A stretch of 12,885 nt of DNA from a virus. Taxonomy: Duplodnaviria > Heunggongvirae > Uroviricota > Caudoviricetes. Under the pieces are notes generated by a model, which was not told the DNA's origin, did no database searches, and saw nothing but the letters and a program-made list of their open reading frames with translations. Location: IMG/VR virus record IMGVR_UViG_2657245081_000004; one strand, 5' to 3'. Position numbers and translations under genes: made by a program. Below, one piece after another: positions 1,736 to 10,841 of the stretch. Position 1 is the stretch's first letter; each line of letters opens with the position of its first letter.

Positions 1736-4207
1736 TTAAGAATCAGCCTGACTCGGGATCAGTTTTTGCCAGATAACTGAAACGTATTTTGCCTGGTAAC
1801 GGGCGTCATCAAGTGCATTATGGCGCTCACCTTCGAATGGAATAGCCGTTCTGGCATCGAAGTCTATGGCTTTCCCCAGCTCAACGATTGTGCGTACATC
1901 GCGATCGTTGTAGTAACGCCACGGGCAGGGGATCCCCTGCCGTTCGTATGAACGGCGCAAAATCGTGTTGTCGAAGTTGGCTCCATTTCCCCAGACCTGA
2001 ACAAAAAATTCACCGGAGTTTTCGTCGATAAATTCCCACAATTGTAACAGTGCATCATCTAACGGGATTTCATCGGTCATAATGGCAGATTGCGCTTCGC
2101 GTGATTGCTTAAGCCACCATTTAATGGTGTCCCGATCAATGACTCCGCCAGCAGTTTCCAGATCGATAGTCTTACTAAATTCCGGTCCCATATCTCCGGT
2201 TTGCGGATCGAAAAATATTGCACCTATTGAGATGATCGGGGCATCAGGATTTTTTCCCATGGTTTCAAGGTCGATCATTAGATGGTCACACGTCCTGCTG
2301 GTGGATGTGATTTCTTGATGACCGTTCACCTTAATTGAGTGATCTGCCGTCTCGCCAGTTTCATTATCGCTATCGTGATGCTGATTGCCGCCAGTGTTCT
2401 CCTTGTGTGGATGTTCAGCGCCTTCCATTTCCTCCGGATCATCTTCCTGAACTTCAATCTGATACTCTTCATCGAATGTTTCCTGGTATGTTGCGTCGCC
2501 CATTACCGCGCCACAATCAGGGCAGTTGCCGCCGCCGGTCTGACCGCAGGCGGTGCAGACTTTTTCCACTTCCTGTTGCGCCACTGATTCAGGCTGTTTC
2601 GTTTCTGGCTCGTTTTGTAACGCATTTGGGCTGTTTTGTTCCGCTTTTTGGTAGTTCCGTTCCGATTCATGCTGGTTCTGGTTCACAGAATCGCGGGTCT
2701 GGATCCCCTTAACCCATTTCGGATCATTCGGGTCACTAATCCCTTCAACAAATTCACCACGTGATGCAGCAAGCAACTTATCGGCGTCAGGCTGGATGAT
2801 ATTGGCTGCCTGCATAATTTTGTTTACTTCGTCAGCGGTAACTTTTATCGGCTCTGGTTGTTCTGAATCTTCAGCGGTATCTACATTTTGCGGTAAGCCC
2901 GTGTATGTGCCATTTTTTCGGGCAAAATATTCTTCTTTTGTGATTTCAGTGGCGCCAGCAGCCAGTGCCTTATCCAGACCAGAAAGTTTGTTTGCGCGAC
3001 CGTATTTTTCTCCGTCCTTATCTGCGAAGAGGAAATAGAACGGCCCCTCACGCTCTACAGATGGTTCAGCTTCCGGCGCGGTTTCATTTTTTGGGATATC
3101 AGATACCTCAGTTTCCACTGCATCAGTTTGTGTTTCTGATGACTGGAGAACATCAACAGTGCCCAGGTCTGTTTCTTCATTCTCAAACACGCCCTTTGTC
3201 GTCAGGTATTCGCAGATATATTTGTTCAGTGCTACGGGATCTTTGTGAATGTCGATCGGACGCTCACGGACAAGGCCAAAAATAGTTTGGCGGTCGTAGC
3301 GAAGGGCATCAGGCTGTTTGCGCATTGATGCCGAGATACGCTTCCAGTCTTCGCGGTCGTTGTCGATAACTTCATTTTTTGCCCAGCGATGGATGCTGCC
3401 GTCAATGTTTCCGGCATCCACATCACCAGGCCAGAGAGCGTAGGCCAGTTCGTCATCCAGTGTTTTCCATGTCTGCTTGTATTCGCGATGAATGGCAGCA
3501 ATGACCGGGCTGATTTTTCCTGTTGAATTTTCAGTGTACTGTTGATTGGCTCTGGCGCGGGCGAGATCAACAACAGACGTGTATTTTCCGGTTTCCTTGC
3601 GTTCACCTTCGCGACGTTTTTTCCAGATGCGCATCTCTGCCTGAATTTCGGGCCATTTAGCACCAGGAATACATTTATGCTTAACCCACCCAATGGCGTG
3701 CAACTTAAGCTCCGGATACATGGCGTTAACTTCTGGCATTTTCATCAACGCTTCAACGATATGTCCGTCGAATGTTGCCATGTCTTCCTGCAACAATTCC
3801 TGTGCGCTAATAACCATATCAACGGTGATGTTTTCACATGTGTCGAACTTAACCATGACAGCGTTCTGTACTTCAGGGGCCAGCTTGTCAAAAGTGACGT
3901 TCATCGGATCGGATTCAGTCTCAACCGGGACAAAAGAAGCAGACTCCTCATCCCAGCGGTTTTCCTGCATATATTCAGCATCCCATGAATCGAGGGCAGG
4001 GCGGGGTATGCCAGGTTTATCCTCGCAGACAATAAATTTATAAGCGCAGTCCTGAGCAGCCGGATAATGTTCCAGGAATTGCCAGTGAAATTTTGCTCGA
4101 GCACGGCGTTCGTCGCCAGCTTCAATGGCTGTGGCTACAGCCACAGCGCCTTCTTCCCTTGTTGCCAGTTCGTCAGGAATAGCGGCGCAAATAAAGACTT
4201 TACTCAT
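1736..4207 (-). CDS. ydfE: Large prophage protein with C-terminal DEDDh (DnaQ-like) 3'-5' exonuclease domain and internal CxxC...CxxC zinc ribbon (YdfE-like)
   Basis: C-terminus carries motifs IDLETMG, GNGANFDNTIL and HNALDDARYQ typical of DEDDh exonucleases; CTACGQTGGGNCPDCG zinc ribbon mid-protein; N-terminus MSKVFICAAIPDELA recalled as YdfE. Start chosen at ATG 4207 (AGGT 9 nt upstream) rather than track start 4243. Confidence 0.75.
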   Translation of the reverse strand: MSKVFICAAIPDELATREEGAVAVATAIEAGDERRARAKFHWQFLEHYPAAQDCAYKFIVCEDKPGIPRPALDSWDAEYMQENRWDEESASFVPVETESDPMNVTFDKLAPEVQNAVMVKFDTCENITVDMVISAQELLQEDMATFDGHIVEALMKMPEVNAMYPELKLHAIGWVKHKCIPGAKWPEIQAEMRIWKKRREGERKETGKYTSVVDLARARANQQYTENSTGKISPVIAAIHREYKQTWKTLDDELAYALWPGDVDAGNIDGSIHRWAKNEVIDNDREDWKRISASMRKQPDALRYDRQTIFGLVRERPIDIHKDPVALNKYICEYLTTKGVFENEETDLGTVDVLQSSETQTDAVETEVSDIPKNETAPEAEPSVEREGPFYFLFADKDGEKYGRANKLSGLDKALAAGATEITKEEYFARKNGTYTGLPQNVDTAEDSEQPEPIKVTADEVNKIMQAANIIQPDADKLLAASRGEFVEGISDPNDPKWVKGIQTRDSVNQNQHESERNYQKAEQNSPNALQNEPETKQPESVAQQEVEKVCTACGQTGGGNCPDCGAVMGDATYQETFDEEYQIEVQEDDPEEMEGAEHPHKENTGGNQHHDSDNETGETADHSIKVNGHQEITSTSRTCDHLMIDLETMGKNPDAPIISIGAIFFDPQTGDMGPEFSKTIDLETAGGVIDRDTIKWWLKQSREAQSAIMTDEIPLDDALLQLWEFIDENSGEFFVQVWGNGANFDNTILRRSYERQGIPCPWRYYNDRDVRTIVELGKAIDFDARTAIPFEGERHNALDDARYQAKYVSVIWQKLIPSQADS

Positions 4208-4299
4208 TTGTTTTAACCTCATGACAGATTTAAGGATGAACAAATCCCTGCCATTGCTGGCATATAAGAATGAAACCGGATATTTATTACGGAACTGTT

Positions 4300-4845: not shown

Positions 4846-4903
4846 AAAAAGGGCGGCAGAGCAGTCACGGAGTAAAACTGATACCGCCAAACGTCACCAG
4901 AAA
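4846..4903 (-). ncRNA. dicF: DicF small RNA (ftsZ-targeting) with its intrinsic terminator
   Basis: Minus-strand sequence UUUCUGGUGACGUUUGGCGGUAUCAGUUUUACUCCGUGACUGCUCUGCCGCCCUUUUU matches remembered DicF; ends in a GGCGG/CCGCC stem plus U5. Confidence 0.85.
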
Positions 4904-5243: not shown

Positions 5244-5462
5244 TTAACGCGGGTATGTAATCATTCTGGCAATGCTTAATGCCGCTGCTTTTTCCAGATT
5301 GGTGATATCCTGCTCCAGAGCGGACAGATTTTCAGCCTGCTTAGCCCTGGCTTCATTGGCCCATTTCAGATCCTGCGCTGCATTAATTTTCTGGCGCATC
5401 CACTCATAAAGTTCATCATCGGTATAGTCTGGCGCGATGATGACGGGTTCTCGTTTCTGCAT
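5244..5462 (-). CDS. ydfC: YdfC-like protein (72 aa)
   Basis: 72-aa ORF in the expected position between ydfB and dicF; GAGG 9 nt upstream of the start. Name by synteny and length. Confidence 0.7.
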   Translation of the reverse strand: MQKREPVIIAPDYTDDELYEWMRQKINAAQDLKWANEARAKQAENLSALEQDITNLEKAAALSIARMITYPR

Positions 5463-5491
5463 ACTGATTCCTCGCGGTGCTGTTTCGCTTA

Positions 5492-5620
5492 TCAGCCGTT
5501 AGATTTTGCCGAACTGGAAAGCGCCTGTTTAAATTCGTTGAAGCTGTGAGCTTCTTCGCCTTCGGCAAGGCCTTCGAAGTATTCTTCGTAAGCCTTTTCC
5601 ATGATTGTGTCAAAATCCAT
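5492..5620 (-). CDS. ydfB: YdfB-like small acidic protein (42 aa), not in the ORF track (below length cutoff)
   Basis: Hand translation MDFDTIMEKAYEEYFEGLAEGEEAHSFNEFKQALSSSAKSNG; AGGTGA 6 nt upstream of ATG 5620; start sits 1 nt after the ydfA stop; length matches the 42-aa YdfB. Confidence 0.65.
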   Translation of the reverse strand: MDFDTIMEKAYEEYFEGLAEGEEAHSFNEFKQALSSSAKSNG

Positions 5621-5621
5621 A

Positions 5622-5777
5622 TCACTCACCTGAGTTTCTTTCCAGCCAGCGACGGGCACCATTTTCGGTTTTAAACGTTTTGCTTTTGGTATACGTCATT
5701 GCGGTGAAGGTGCCGTCCTGGTTTGGAAACACGCCGTACACCAGAGATTCGTTGTTGCCAAGATCGATAGTATCCAT
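5622..5777 (-). CDS. ydfA: YdfA-like protein (51 aa)
   Basis: Internal ATG at 5777 gives MDTIDLGNNESLVYGVFPNQDGTFTAMTYTKSKTFKTENGARRWLERNSGE, with GAGG 6 nt upstream; the track ORF 5622..5858 is probably an upstream extension. Name by synteny and length. Confidence 0.65.
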   Translation of the reverse strand: MDTIDLGNNESLVYGVFPNQDGTFTAMTYTKSKTFKTENGARRWLERNSGE

Positions 5778-5956
5778 GCTGACCTCATTTCCCCTTAACG
5801 CCGGGGTAGCGGAACAAAAACCTGCTGCATAGTTATTAAAGTTGAACCCTGCCGTCATGTTCTTACGCCTCGGGCTGGCTACTTAACCCCTGACCACTGC
5901 CTGGTAACTCGAAGTATTGCCCTGCATTCTGTAGGATGGGGTGAGGGAATGAATGA

Positions 5957-7452: not shown

Positions 7453-7523
7453 CTGACAATAGCCATATCGAATCGCTTCCGGCAACTCGTGAGTAAAAAG
7501 ATTCGGTATCAGAAGAGGTGAGT

Positions 7524-8594
7524 ATGGCTAACGCCTGGCTCAGATTATGGCATGACATGCCAAATGACCCTAAGTGGCGAACAATTGCCAGGGTGTCAGG
7601 GCAGCCAATTGCAACAGTGATGGCAGTGTATATCCACCTCCTGGTGAGCGCGTCACGAAATGTCACGCGAGGTCACATTGATGTCACGACAGAAGATTTG
7701 GCAAGTGCGCTCGACGTGACAGAAGAGGTAATTGATTCAATTTTGCAGACGATGCAGGGGCGGGTACTTGATGGTGATTTAATCACTGGATGGGAAAAAC
7801 GCCAGGTGCTGAAAGAGGACAACGGCAATATTTCGCAAACCGCAAAATCTCCGGCAGAGCGCAAGAGGGCGCAGCGAGAGAGGGAAAGAAAGCGGGAACA
7901 AAATGGCGATTGTCACGGCGCGTCACGAAATGTCACGCACATGTCACGACGAGTCACGACAGATAAAGATACAGATAAAGATACAGATCAAGAAGATCAA
8001 AACACTATGGTCCATGGCGTAAAAAACGCCACGAACCAGGCAGGGGATGTTCAGACCGTCAATCCTGGTCAGCCAGCAGGCACGACACCGGAAGCCGATT
8101 CAGCGTATGCGCTGAAAGCCGATTCGGGCGCTGTGCAGCAGGTGATGACCCCAAGGCCGGAGCAATCACACCAACTGCAGCAGCCTGAAGCCGATTCCGC
8201 CATTCAGCGGGAAGCCGATCGGGTAGTCCCGGAAAACACCGGGCTGTCTGTGGGACGAGTGGATTATCCGGATGTGTTCGAACAGGTCTGGCGGGAGTAC
8301 CCGTTGCGTGCCGGAGCAAACCCGAAGAAATCCGCTTTCAGTGCCTGGAAGGCCAGATTACGCGAGGGGGTGCCACCAGAGGCCATGCTGGATGGCGTGA
8401 GGCGTTACGCAAGATACTTGGCGGCTACCGGGAAAACGGGAACGGAATTTGTTCAGCGAGCGACGACGTTTTTTGGACCGGACCGGAATTTTGAGAACCC
8501 CTGGTTGCTCCCGGTAAGCGGCACGAACAACCAGCGTTGTGTGAATCATATTTCTGAACCGGATACCGAAATTCCACCGGGCTTCAGGGGGTAA
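7524..8594 (+). CDS. Phage replication initiation protein (O-like N-terminal region; C-terminal domain resembling DnaT)
   Basis: GAGG 5 nt upstream of ATG 7524; iteron arrays lie inside the gene as in lambda O; C-terminal region (VDYPDVFEQVWREYPL...FVQRATTFFGPDRNF) recalled as DnaT-like. Confidence 0.65.
   Translation: MANAWLRLWHDMPNDPKWRTIARVSGQPIATVMAVYIHLLVSASRNVTRGHIDVTTEDLASALDVTEEVIDSILQTMQGRVLDGDLITGWEKRQVLKEDNGNISQTAKSPAERKRAQRERERKREQNGDCHGASRNVTHMSRRVTTDKDTDKDTDQEDQNTMVHGVKNATNQAGDVQTVNPGQPAGTTPEADSAYALKADSGAVQQVMTPRPEQSHQLQQPEADSAIQREADRVVPENTGLSVGRVDYPDVFEQVWREYPLRAGANPKKSAFSAWKARLREGVPPEAMLDGVRRYARYLAATGKTGTEFVQRATTFFGPDRNFENPWLLPVSGTNNQRCVNHISEPDTEIPPGFRG
7648..7688. repeat. 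Iteron cluster 1: four GTCACG/GTCAC repeats at about 10-bp spacing
   Basis: GTCACG at 7652, 7662, 7683 and GTCAC at 7672; contains the 21-mer GCGCGTCACGAAATGTCACGC that recurs exactly at 7918-7938. Confidence 0.7.
7912..8003. repeat. Iteron cluster 2 (five GTCACG repeats at 10-11 bp spacing) followed by an AT-rich tandem repeat; putative origin of replication
   Basis: GTCACG at 7912, 7922, 7932, 7943, 7953; then AGATAAAGATACAGATAAAGATACAGATCAAGAAGATCAA. Iterons plus an AT-rich tract inside the initiator gene is the lambda ori layout. Confidence 0.65.
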
Positions 8595-8634
8595 GTGTTG
8601 ATTTCTGGTCATGAGGTAATTTTCAGGAGGGCTT

Positions 8635-9057
8635 GTGGCAAAAGTTTTTACACAAGAAGAGCGAGAAAAAATTAAAGGGCAGGTTGTTGAACTCGTACGC
8701 CAGAGTGGGCGTGAGACGTTACGGCAACTGGAAGTCAAGACAGGTGCGACAAGATATCTGATGAGCGTTCTCGCAAGAGAGCTGGTTGCCAGCGGCGATG
8801 TATACAACTCCGGCTACGGGTTATTCCCCTCTGAACAGGCGCGTAAGGACTGGCAAAACGCCCGCAAAAAACTCTCGAGGGCAAAGGTGAAGAAACCTGC
8901 TGTGGTTGATCCGGACCTTATCTGGTCATCACCTGACGGAGAAATACGTCGCTACGACAGTCGCCTAAACATAATCTGTCGCGAGTGCCGGAAGAGTGAA
9001 GCTATGCAGCGTGTACTGGCTTTCTATCAGGGTAATTTTCAGGAGGCGGTACTGTGA
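8635..9057 (+). CDS. Hypothetical protein (140 aa), GTG start
   Basis: AGGAGG 4 nt upstream of GTG 8635; unrecognised; flanked by a 16-bp direct repeat. Confidence 0.55.
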   Translation: MAKVFTQEEREKIKGQVVELVRQSGRETLRQLEVKTGATRYLMSVLARELVASGDVYNSGYGLFPSEQARKDWQNARKKLSRAKVKKPAVVDPDLIWSSPDGEIRRYDSRLNIICRECRKSEAMQRVLAFYQGNFQEAVL

Positions 9058-9114
9058 GTGAAATTAGCTATCAGGCTTCAATTACCGCTGGCATTCGCAT
9101 CAAAGGAGAGGAGC

Positions 9115-9471
9115 ATGGAAATAAAACCAGAGGATGAGTTAAGCAATATCGTTTTATTTCCGGTAAAAGAGGATGACCCTCGTAATCAGGTTAATTTTCT
9201 TTATGAGCCATCGGAAAGACCATATTGTCATCACGCCTCTGTCCGGGTTGACGAAAAAGAGCGTCAGGTCCGCTGTAAAATCTGCGGTGCAGTTGTGGAG
9301 CCATTTGACTGGATGCTCTCTGTGGCGAAAAGAGAAACCAGACTGGCAGATGATGTAAGGCTCTTGCGTCAGGAGGAGCGGGAAAGGCGAAAAAATATAG
9401 AAAAGCTAATTCAGATTGAGCGTAACGCGAAAGCGCGGATACGCAGGGCGACAAAATCCAGAACTGAATAA
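9115..9471 (+). CDS. Hypothetical protein (118 aa) with possible zinc-ribbon motif (CHH...CKICG) and basic C-terminal tail
   Basis: GGAGAGGAG upstream of ATG 9115; alternative GTG start at 9058 would add 19 aa. Confidence 0.55.
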   Translation: MEIKPEDELSNIVLFPVKEDDPRNQVNFLYEPSERPYCHHASVRVDEKERQVRCKICGAVVEPFDWMLSVAKRETRLADDVRLLRQEERERRKNIEKLIQIERNAKARIRRATKSRTE

Positions 9472-9564
9472 TTAAATTTAGCTCTGTTAAAAATTTAATC
9501 CTTAACCGGAGGGATTTCTGCACCCTCAGAACATCAGGAGGCCGCCCGAAAGGGCGGTAGTTAA

Positions 9565-9747: not shown

Positions 9748-9916
9748 TTTTGGTTCAACTAAATACAACGTCAGTTTTGAAGAATGGCATGAACTGTTAA
9801 TGGACTATGCAGAGTTACGTGGTGGCAGTGCTGCTGATGCTGAAGCATGGCGTGATGATTATGAAGCAGGAAAAACTCCGGTCGAAGCATATTGTGATGA
9901 GTGGGGCGATGAATGA
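9740..9916 (+). CDS. Small acidic protein (58 aa), translationally coupled to the preceding acidic ORF
   Basis: Hand translation MADFGSTKYNVSFEEWHELLMDYAELRGGSAADAEAWRDDYEAGKTPVEAYCDEWGDE; GAGGAAG 8 nt upstream; start overlaps the upstream stop by 8 nt. Not in the ORF track (below cutoff). Confidence 0.5.
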   Translation: MADFGSTKYNVSFEEWHELLMDYAELRGGSAADAEAWRDDYEAGKTPVEAYCDEWGDE

Positions 9917-9974
9917 GCGAGGTTAATTATCAGGAAGGGCATGAAACGGCGGGGCAAGCAAAAACAGTGGCATG

Positions 9975-10229
9975 GCGATATCGCTACGTGAAAAAAAAGG
10001 CGTTACGGACTTTCAGGGGAAGTAGTGGTCTGGTGACTGGAAATATGTACCGAAAAAAGAGGATTGTAACGACAGGCCGAACTATGAAATTCAGGCCTTA
10101 TTCACTGCCCCGCCAGTCCCGGTTACATCAGAAGAACTGGTTAAAGCTGTGCACTTTTATGAACAACTAAAACGCGAAAATCCACCAGCATCCGGAAACC
10201 TGATTACAGATTCCCAGATAAGGCAATGA
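9975..10229 (+). pseudogene. Interrupted ORF: 17 codons from ATG 9975, in-frame TAG at 10023-10025, then 67 sense codons with no start codon
   Basis: The frame reads MAISLREKKGVTDFQGK, TAG, then WSGDWKYVPKKEDCNDRPNYEIQALFTAPPVPVTSEELVKAVHFYEQLKRENPPASGNLITDSQIRQ. The track ORF 9913..10170 is in another frame and is basic and low-complexity. Confidence 0.35.
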
Positions 10230-10662: not shown

Positions 10663-10734
10663 GACTGCGGGTGCTTGAGGCTATCTGTCTCAGGCATGAA
10701 CACCAAAAGGCAGATAGAGAAAAGCCCCAGTTAA

Positions 10735-10800
10735 CATTACGCGTCCTGCAAGACGCTTAACATTAATCTGAGGCCATATCTATGCGACACATAGAGATTA
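10735..10800 (-). ncRNA. Putative Sok-like antisense RNA region (approximate bounds)
   Basis: Minus-strand promoter-like TTGACC (complement of 10821-10826), 16-nt spacer, GCTAAT, reading across the mok-like start; position matches hok/sok architecture. Ends not determinable. Confidence 0.35.
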
Positions 10801-10841
10801 GCCTCTTACGGACCGAAAGGTCAAGGAGAAGCAGGCTATGA
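10782..10841 (+). CDS. Short leader ORF (19 aa) ending in ATGA overlap with the hok start; mok-like coupling frame
   Basis: ATG 10782 with GAGG 8 nt upstream; stop TGA overlaps the hok ATG. Confidence 0.35.
   Translation: MRHIEISLLRTERSRRSRL

Follow-up and report, generated by a model that had tools for sequence, protein, structure and literature searches.

The window, by which we mean the whole 12,885-nucleotide stretch of DNA analysed here (IMG/VR record IMGVR_UViG_2657245081_000004), is a Rac-like lambdoid Escherichia coli prophage, and the region that holds the repeat under study is 99.5-100% identical to E. coli strains such as SK1144 and CFT073. The layout begins with an integrase, an excisionase, an exonuclease VIII-like gene and the DicF RNA, passes through a cI-like repressor, cro and a YdaT/cII-like gene to an O-like initiator (7518-8594), and continues after lygF (8635-9057) with several small genes, hok/sok, DUF968, RusA and Q. 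The features on which the analysis turns are as follows.

7518-8594, plus strand: O-like replication initiation gene of 358 amino acids in the left-hand module (PHROG phrog_3729 'replication initiation protein', E = 1.8e-256).
8595-8634, plus strand: intercistronic leader of 40 nt from the O-like gene to lygF, holding copy 1 of the repeat (defined from the sequence; gene calls in Tritos, Evi and 640R1 and those of PGAP concur).
8615-8630, plus strand: copy 1, the predicted translation-initiation leader of lygF, with a U-rich tract UAAUUUUC and a perfect Shine-Dalgarno (SD) sequence AGGAGG at 8625-8630, 4 nt from the GTG at 8635.
8635-9057, plus strand: lygF, 140 amino acids, GTG start (Pfam DUF977, E = 4.2e-28; PHROG phrog_142 'Ren-like exclusion protein', E = 2.3e-47).
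9031-9046, plus strand: copy 2, inside lygF codons 133-138 (Gly-Asn-Phe-Gln-Glu and the first base of Ala), with AGGAGG at 9041-9046 as the predicted SD for the cistron 7 nt on.
9054-9057, plus strand: GTGA overlap, in which the GTG of the next cistron (9054-9056) lies over the lygF stop codon TGA (9055-9057), a translational-coupling register.
9054-9137, plus strand: 27-codon open reading frame, an in-frame ead/Ea22-like remnant with the N-terminus VSEISYQAS fused to the C-terminus TAGIRIKGEEHGNKTRG.
9115-9471, plus strand: zinc-ribbon-like gene of 118 amino acids with its own SD AAGGAGAGGAG at 9103-9113 (phrog_1621, E = 1.8e-56; weak Pfam Zn_Ribbon_TF match).
9922-9937, plus strand: third, partial copy of the repeat, GTTAATTATCAGGAAG, matching at 13 of 16 positions; it lies in a pseudogene that starts at 9913 and codes there for MSEVNYQE, the conserved ead/Ea22-like N-terminus.

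lygF lies directly downstream of the replication genes, and the stretch from 8300 to 9400 that contains it has matches in 4,204 of 5,426 complete E. coli genomes (approximately 78%). Beside the family matches listed above, LygF gave a weak match to a PHROG annotated 'DNA binding protein' (E = 1.9e-5). NCBIfam held no name for LygF or its partner genes, and literature searches for 'LygF' turned up nothing but unrelated papers on lysozyme and announcements of Salmonella genomes. Neither a promoter-like site nor a plus-strand terminator was predicted between 8300 and 9500, and lygF thus differs from a moron, which is recognised by a promoter and a terminator of its own. Among 214 loci we found no tight tandem pair of lygF genes; one viral contig (L116) carries two same-strand paralogues, at 5446-5841 and 9117-9512, which are 92 and 77% identical to the query, the second of them downstream of a DnaC-like loader gene. 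A scan of genome contigs yielded only 12 lygF loci. Four short contigs (L209, L210, L212 and L213) from MAGs that bear the labels Collinsella, Bacillota and Veillonella have lygF genes 90-95% identical to the E. coli gene, most likely as a result of binning contamination by enterobacterial prophage DNA.

A search of the window for the 16-mer GGTAATTTTCAGGAGG gave two exact matches, both on the plus strand and both where the preliminary description of this DNA had placed them, at 8615-8630 and 9031-9046. Copy 1 is followed by GCTT and the GTG at 8635, and copy 2 by CGGTACT and the GTG at 9054, with a further GTG at 9058. It had also been claimed that each copy contains an SD with a GTG close behind it, and this is correct, with AGGAGG standing 4 nt before the GTG at 8635 and 7 nt before that at 9054. 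The accompanying statement that the repeat flanks the 140-amino-acid gene was mistaken, since copy 2 is internal to lygF (codons 133-138) and the stop codon follows at 9055-9057.

We found that, when the window was shuffled 1000 times by mononucleotides, only 13 shuffles (approximately 1.3%) produced an exact direct repeat of at least 16 nt, and that three or more matches at up to 3 mismatches arose in none of 200 dinucleotide shuffles; a 16-nt repeat by chance is unlikely. Plain shuffles were used in place of a Markov-chain estimate of repeat frequency (33%), which we discarded because it was distorted by two runs of 10 N in the window. These runs of masked bases lie at 60-69 and 179-188, in the region of the integrase reading frame. 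The canonical SD AGGAGG makes up 6 of the 16 bases, so convergence on the SD can explain only those 6. Homology between the copies was not detected past the 16 nt, as the 45-nt flanks aligned no better than shuffles (local alignment p = 0.73 on the left and 0.53 on the right). The identity at 16 of 16 positions could stem from common descent, from selection for a favoured leader or from coincidence.

The exact 16-mer occurred 141 times in viral contigs, approximately 88 times as a lygF leader, approximately 50 times as the 3' end of lygF and 3 times in unrelated contexts. With up to 2 mismatches allowed, we counted 160 leader-type, 152 3'-end-type and 8 other occurrences in 1.79 Mb of related loci, meaning that 312 of 320 were attached to lygF as its leader or its 3' codons. 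A core junction, TTTCAGGAGG followed by 6 nt, GTGAG and an ead-like start, also joins a DUF4406-like gene to ead-like genes, which makes the motif an intercistronic junction that recurs within this gene array. Our data indicate that the 16-mer repeat is a real but ordinary feature. The match at 9922-9937 was rejected as a member of the repeat family, as it codes for the ead-like N-terminus and approximately 0.1 such matches are expected by chance; it probably stands outside the family. The reading frame to which it belongs (9913-10229) has the conserved ead/Ea22 N-terminus and diverges afterwards, and PGAP annotates its SK1144 equivalent as frameshifted with an internal stop.

At copy 1, the spacing of AGGAGG to the start codon falls within the approximately 4-9 nt of an SD region, and the GTG at 8635 opens the DUF977/lygF reading frame, although a 4-nt spacing is short relative to an optimal SD. 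The leader, in the form GTAATTT(T)CAGGAGGRCTT, precedes lygF in at least four unrelated upstream contexts. It stands behind the O-like gene, behind a 222-amino-acid protein, behind ydaW in a degenerate form, and behind a DnaC-like loader, the TAA stop codon of which falls within the leader motif. It is kept before lygF alleles with a protein identity of only about 50-77%, and across alleles the leader is better conserved than the LygF protein. A riboswitch, a terminator or another RNA structure at the copies was considered and rejected: folding was not significant at either copy (z-scores of -0.7 to +0.6), neither copy matched an Rfam family, and no promoter or terminator was predicted.

Copy 2 encodes LygF residues 133-137 (GNFQE), and the SD that it contains therefore lies inside the upstream coding sequence, ahead of a start codon that overlaps the lygF stop. 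This register, the 16-mer followed by seven variable nucleotides and GTGA(G), was invariant in 61 unique junctions and constant before all the partners found in relatives, which are DUF4406/nucleoside 2-deoxyribosyltransferase-like, DNA methyltransferase, ead/Ea22-like and 88-amino-acid genes. The annotated starts in 689R5 and PhiR42_1 use the overlapping GTG. Over 40 distinct junctions, mean entropy was 0.22 bits in the 16-mer and 0.06 bits in GTGAG, compared to 1.04 bits in the 7-nt spacer and 1.39 bits in the next gene. Among unique loci, a reading frame of at least 80 amino acids starting at the lygF stop was present behind 48 of 68 tails that are 16-mer-like (i.e., SD-bearing) versus none of 30 SD-less tails. 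Tritos, for example, has an SD-less lygF tail without a same-strand gene downstream. The SD-less family (e.g., tails in FYQGDVRYLLK followed by the stop codon) equals the coupled family in length and is approximately 59% identical to it by a position-by-position count. These sequences suggest that the SD may have decayed in SD-less tails after the coupled gene was lost. The SD-less family (GGGGATGTTCGGTATTTATTGAAGTGACGAGATTAAAG; e.g., L001, 4130-4160) retains GTGA....ATTAA, which resembles an ead-like start.

In this window the cistron coupled to copy 2 consists of the first approximately 9 and the last approximately 16 codons of an ead/Ea22-like gene. Its N-terminus resembles the ead-like starts VSKINYQA and VSKIDYQE, and its C-terminus matches the end of ArgO145 gp18 (LAGIRIKGEEHGNKTRG followed by the stop codon). 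Since only this 27-codon remnant is left, the role of the copy 2 SD may be vestigial here. PGAP and RefSeq start the following 118-amino-acid gene at the ATG at 9115, while GenBank records such as 640R1 call a 137-amino-acid reading frame from the GTG at 9058. The ATG at 9115 is likely the true start, and we suggest that annotations begin the gene after lygF there and treat 9054-9137 as an ead/Ea22 remnant.

In BLAST comparisons with the window, matches of phages and E. coli genomes begin or end at approximately 8532, 8626, 8636, 9032-9060 and 9086. The proposal that the 16-mer marks a module boundary is thus well founded, as both copies sit at real mosaic junctions (similarity breaks at approximately 8626/8636 and 9032-9060) and the modules on either side of this short conserved sequence assort independently. 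A separate and often-used breakpoint is formed by the last 21 codons of the O-like gene (8532-8594), and many E. coli matches start at query position 233, which is window position 8532. These codons are common to otherwise different replication proteins, including ones that stand before ydaV-ydaW and not lygF, and their product gave a weak match to the C-terminus of the primosomal protein DnaT (E = 0.0016).

Bodies of lygF that are up to 99.2-99.7% identical lie downstream of unrelated upstream genes or different leaders, and each of the two leader types (O-type and ydaW-type) was seen with either tail family, giving all four combinations. The 7-nt spacer at copy 2 is almost perfectly linked to the downstream family, and each 18-nt haplotype upstream of copy 2 pairs with up to three unrelated downstream families. 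Where the downstream modules are at least 98% identical and the lygF alleles differ, identity runs 20-40 nt into lygF in 88 of 116 pairs, a pairwise endpoint count that is, like the others given here, phylogenetically non-independent and may reflect few events. Two pairs of loci (L122/L059 and L056/L073) show clean breaks exactly at the copy-2 16-mer, with lygF bodies 99-100% identical. On the 5' side, leader-linked differences reach coding-sequence positions 1 and 12, and endpoints are mostly 20-60 nt inside lygF. Overall, most exchange endpoints fall 12-60 nt inside the lygF termini and not in the 16-mers. In the simplest reading, lygF is a conserved anchor of approximately 420 bp, the swapped parts are its neighbours, and each 16-mer moves with the adjacent outer module.

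The preliminary description went on to suggest that lygF may have been inserted or exchanged as a cassette by recombination between the two copies, and proposed a search for relatives that have a single copy and lack the gene. We found no such relative in viral contigs, in metagenome contigs or in the 5,426 complete E. coli genomes. Two junctions are expected if the copies recombine, a deletion hybrid, in which the 16-mer lies between the O-side and the downstream-side flanks, and a tandem hybrid, in which it lies between the 3' flank and the start of lygF; both were absent from 2.9 million viral contigs, from the metagenome set and from the 5,426 E. coli genomes. The E. coli search used 76-nt junction queries at E ≤ 1e-19; these replaced synthetic hybrid queries of 405 and 427 nt, which did not discriminate, since a normal locus aligns to such a query in two joined pieces. 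As a positive control, the genuine copy-1 junction was recovered 2,882 times in 2,429 E. coli genomes. Across unique loci, 15 carry both exact copies, 27 only the 5' copy and 30 only the 3' copy, so that the copies are separate in 57 of 72; the two assort independently. Taken together, the missing empty site, the position of copy 2 inside the gene and the separate inheritance of the copies set lygF apart from a repeat-flanked insertion, and the suggested cassette does not stand.

Our data suggest that the two 16-mers are probably one translation-initiation leader used twice, with lygF as the anchor between two mosaic regions. The leader would belong to the rightward early operon of this Rac-like lambdoid prophage and would consist of an A/U-rich tract and a perfect SD, with a GTG start behind it. 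Copy 1 would recruit ribosomes to lygF, and copy 2, within the last codons of lygF, would recruit or retain them, at a constant distance of 7 nt, for the GTGA-joined gene, which in this window is the ead/Ea22 remnant leading into the zinc-ribbon gene. lygF itself would separate the two mosaic regions, with replication genes to its left and an array of accessory genes to its right. With lygF as an anchor of this kind, each leader comes to lie at the outer edge of the shared homology and so marks a module boundary. The neighbours would reassort mostly via homologous exchange in the terminal 12-60 nt of lygF, and not from 16-mer to 16-mer. This reading draws on the observed anatomy and conservation of the leaders, the mosaic assortment, the absence of inter-copy products and the correlation between SD and coupled gene; that the leaders drive translation is predicted from their sequence. 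We infer that the copies are identical at all 16 positions because a preferred leader was selected or was inherited by common descent, and not by coincidence.

Each of the other readings that we weighed accounts for part of these observations. Were the 16-mers recombination sites that bracket a lygF cassette, with crossover between the copies or between equivalent ribosome-binding-site junctions inserting, deleting or swapping the gene, then the coincidence of both copies with mosaic boundaries and the two locus pairs that diverge exactly at copy 2 would follow. Short conserved boundary sequences have been put forward as crossover sites of lambdoid phages (work cited in PMC3029335), Rad52-like recombinases, including RecT of Rac, act on short or diverged homologies (PMC3945230), and the window encodes an exonuclease VIII-like protein. 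This reading is nonetheless very unlikely. The absence of hybrid sites, against 2,882 normal junctions, largely refutes it; moreover, the 16-mer almost never occurs without lygF, a crossover between the copies would leave coding sequence truncated or duplicated because copy 2 is intragenic, and neither the independent assortment of the copies nor the endpoints inside lygF are what a cassette predicts. The absence of the tandem hybrid junction from the viral, metagenome and E. coli sets also weighs against the copies being paralogous relics, left by an ancient head-to-tail duplication of lygF or by capture of its leader, of which only 16 selected nucleotides survive. Such a history fits with the low frequency of 16-nt repeats in shuffles, with the age of both motifs, which are conserved in diverged lygF alleles, and with the type C context, where the 3' end of the upstream gene overlaps the lygF leader as lygF overlaps the next leader. 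We consider it unlikely, as homology stops at the 16 nt, the start codon lies 4 nt behind one copy and 7 nt behind the other, and the sole double lygF locus has its paralogues 3.3 kb apart.

A/U-rich tracts upstream of SDs are common, and two strong ribosome-binding sites could have evolved independently and have become identical over 16 nt in this one mosaic combination through convergence and coincidence. The consensus SD supplies 6 of the 16 bases, the exact copies assort independently, and the shorter core TTTCAGGAGG is found in a few unrelated contexts too. The other 10 bases (GGTAATTTTC), however, agree as well and stand at the same distances from the SD in both copies, a 16-nt repeat anywhere in the window has a chance of approximately 1.3%, and the extended motif recurs at a third type of junction, from DUF4406-like to ead-like genes, which together make coincidence decidedly unlikely. 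The extended leader, AAUUUUCAGGAGG, might instead be a specific mRNA or DNA operator through which a phage or host factor, possibly LygF, co-regulates lygF and the next cistron. If so, selection on a shared operator would explain why the motif is conserved above the LygF protein and why it recurs at the DUF4406-like/ead-like junction, and the weak match of LygF to a DNA-binding protein family would fit. We regard an operator as highly improbable, because the leader has neither dyad symmetry nor RNA structure and its conservation is accounted for by the SD, by coding constraint and by overlap with upstream stop codons.

The preferred reading, one leader used twice around an anchor gene, has precedents in several known systems. 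Coupled cistrons with an ATGA or GTGA overlap and an SD in the upstream 3' codons are found in the lambda nin region and in many phage operons. Copy 2 is like them in its AGGAGG in the last lygF codons, its 7-nt spacer and its GTGA, with the register kept across downstream genes, and unlike typical cases in that the coupled cistron of this window is a 27-codon remnant. The lambda gene ren lies immediately downstream of the replication genes. LygF shares with it the match to PHROG 142 and the place after O/P-type genes, whereas an exclusion role of LygF is putative and DUF977 is a family of domains of unknown function. Direct-repeat-flanked cassettes and morons likewise have a direct repeat at both ends of one small gene; lygF differs from these in having no empty site, a repeat made of ribosome-binding and coding sequence, an intragenic copy 2 and copies that occur independently, and it is without the promoter or terminator of a moron.

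Short conserved boundary (linker) sequences have been proposed at the module junctions of lambdoid phages (Susskind and Botstein 1978; Clark et al. 2001 on HK620; both as cited in PMC3029335). The 16-mer resembles these sequences in its position at gene boundaries, its conservation between unrelated modules and the free reassortment of the modules that flank it. It departs from them in that its conservation is explained by ribosome-binding and coding function, that endpoints lie mostly inside lygF, and that two copies stand in one genome without sign of mutual recombination. Temperate phages exchange DNA with defective prophages by relaxed homologous recombination, in which Rad52-like recombinases, Rac-type RecE/RecT included, take part (De Paepe et al. 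2014, PMC3945230). By analogy, swapping of neighbours probably proceeds through relaxed recombination within lygF genes that are 90-99% identical. Compared to that system, the window has the exonuclease VIII-like gene, and no RecT was identified. The gene in question encodes a protein of 835 amino acids (1736-4243, minus strand) that matches exodeoxyribonuclease VIII (RecE) with E = 1.5e-83, far under the equivalog cutoff, and there is no obvious RecT-sized reading frame adjoining it.

The locus offers a quantified case of lambdoid prophage mosaicism organised around one small conserved gene, and the 16-mer and lygF reveal no new mechanism. Judged from the sequences, the conserved ribosome-binding site and GTGA register may let any incoming gene be expressed by coupling. 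Our data also indicate that a test for the empty site is needed before direct repeats at the ends of genes in phage operons are taken for insertion scars.

Elsewhere in the window, two small RNAs scored over the Rfam gathering threshold, the DicF antisense RNA (4851-4902, minus strand, 76.7 bits) and the sok antitoxin RNA (10669-10840, plus strand, 106.7 bits), which adjoins hokD. The O-like gene contains repeats of its own, an exact 21-nt direct repeat GCGCGTCACGAAATGTCACGC at 7648-7668 and 7918-7938 (spacing 270) and an imperfect 36-nt repeat with 75% identity at 8088-8123 and 8184-8219 (spacing 96), which could be iteron or origin repeats or could reflect repeats in the protein.
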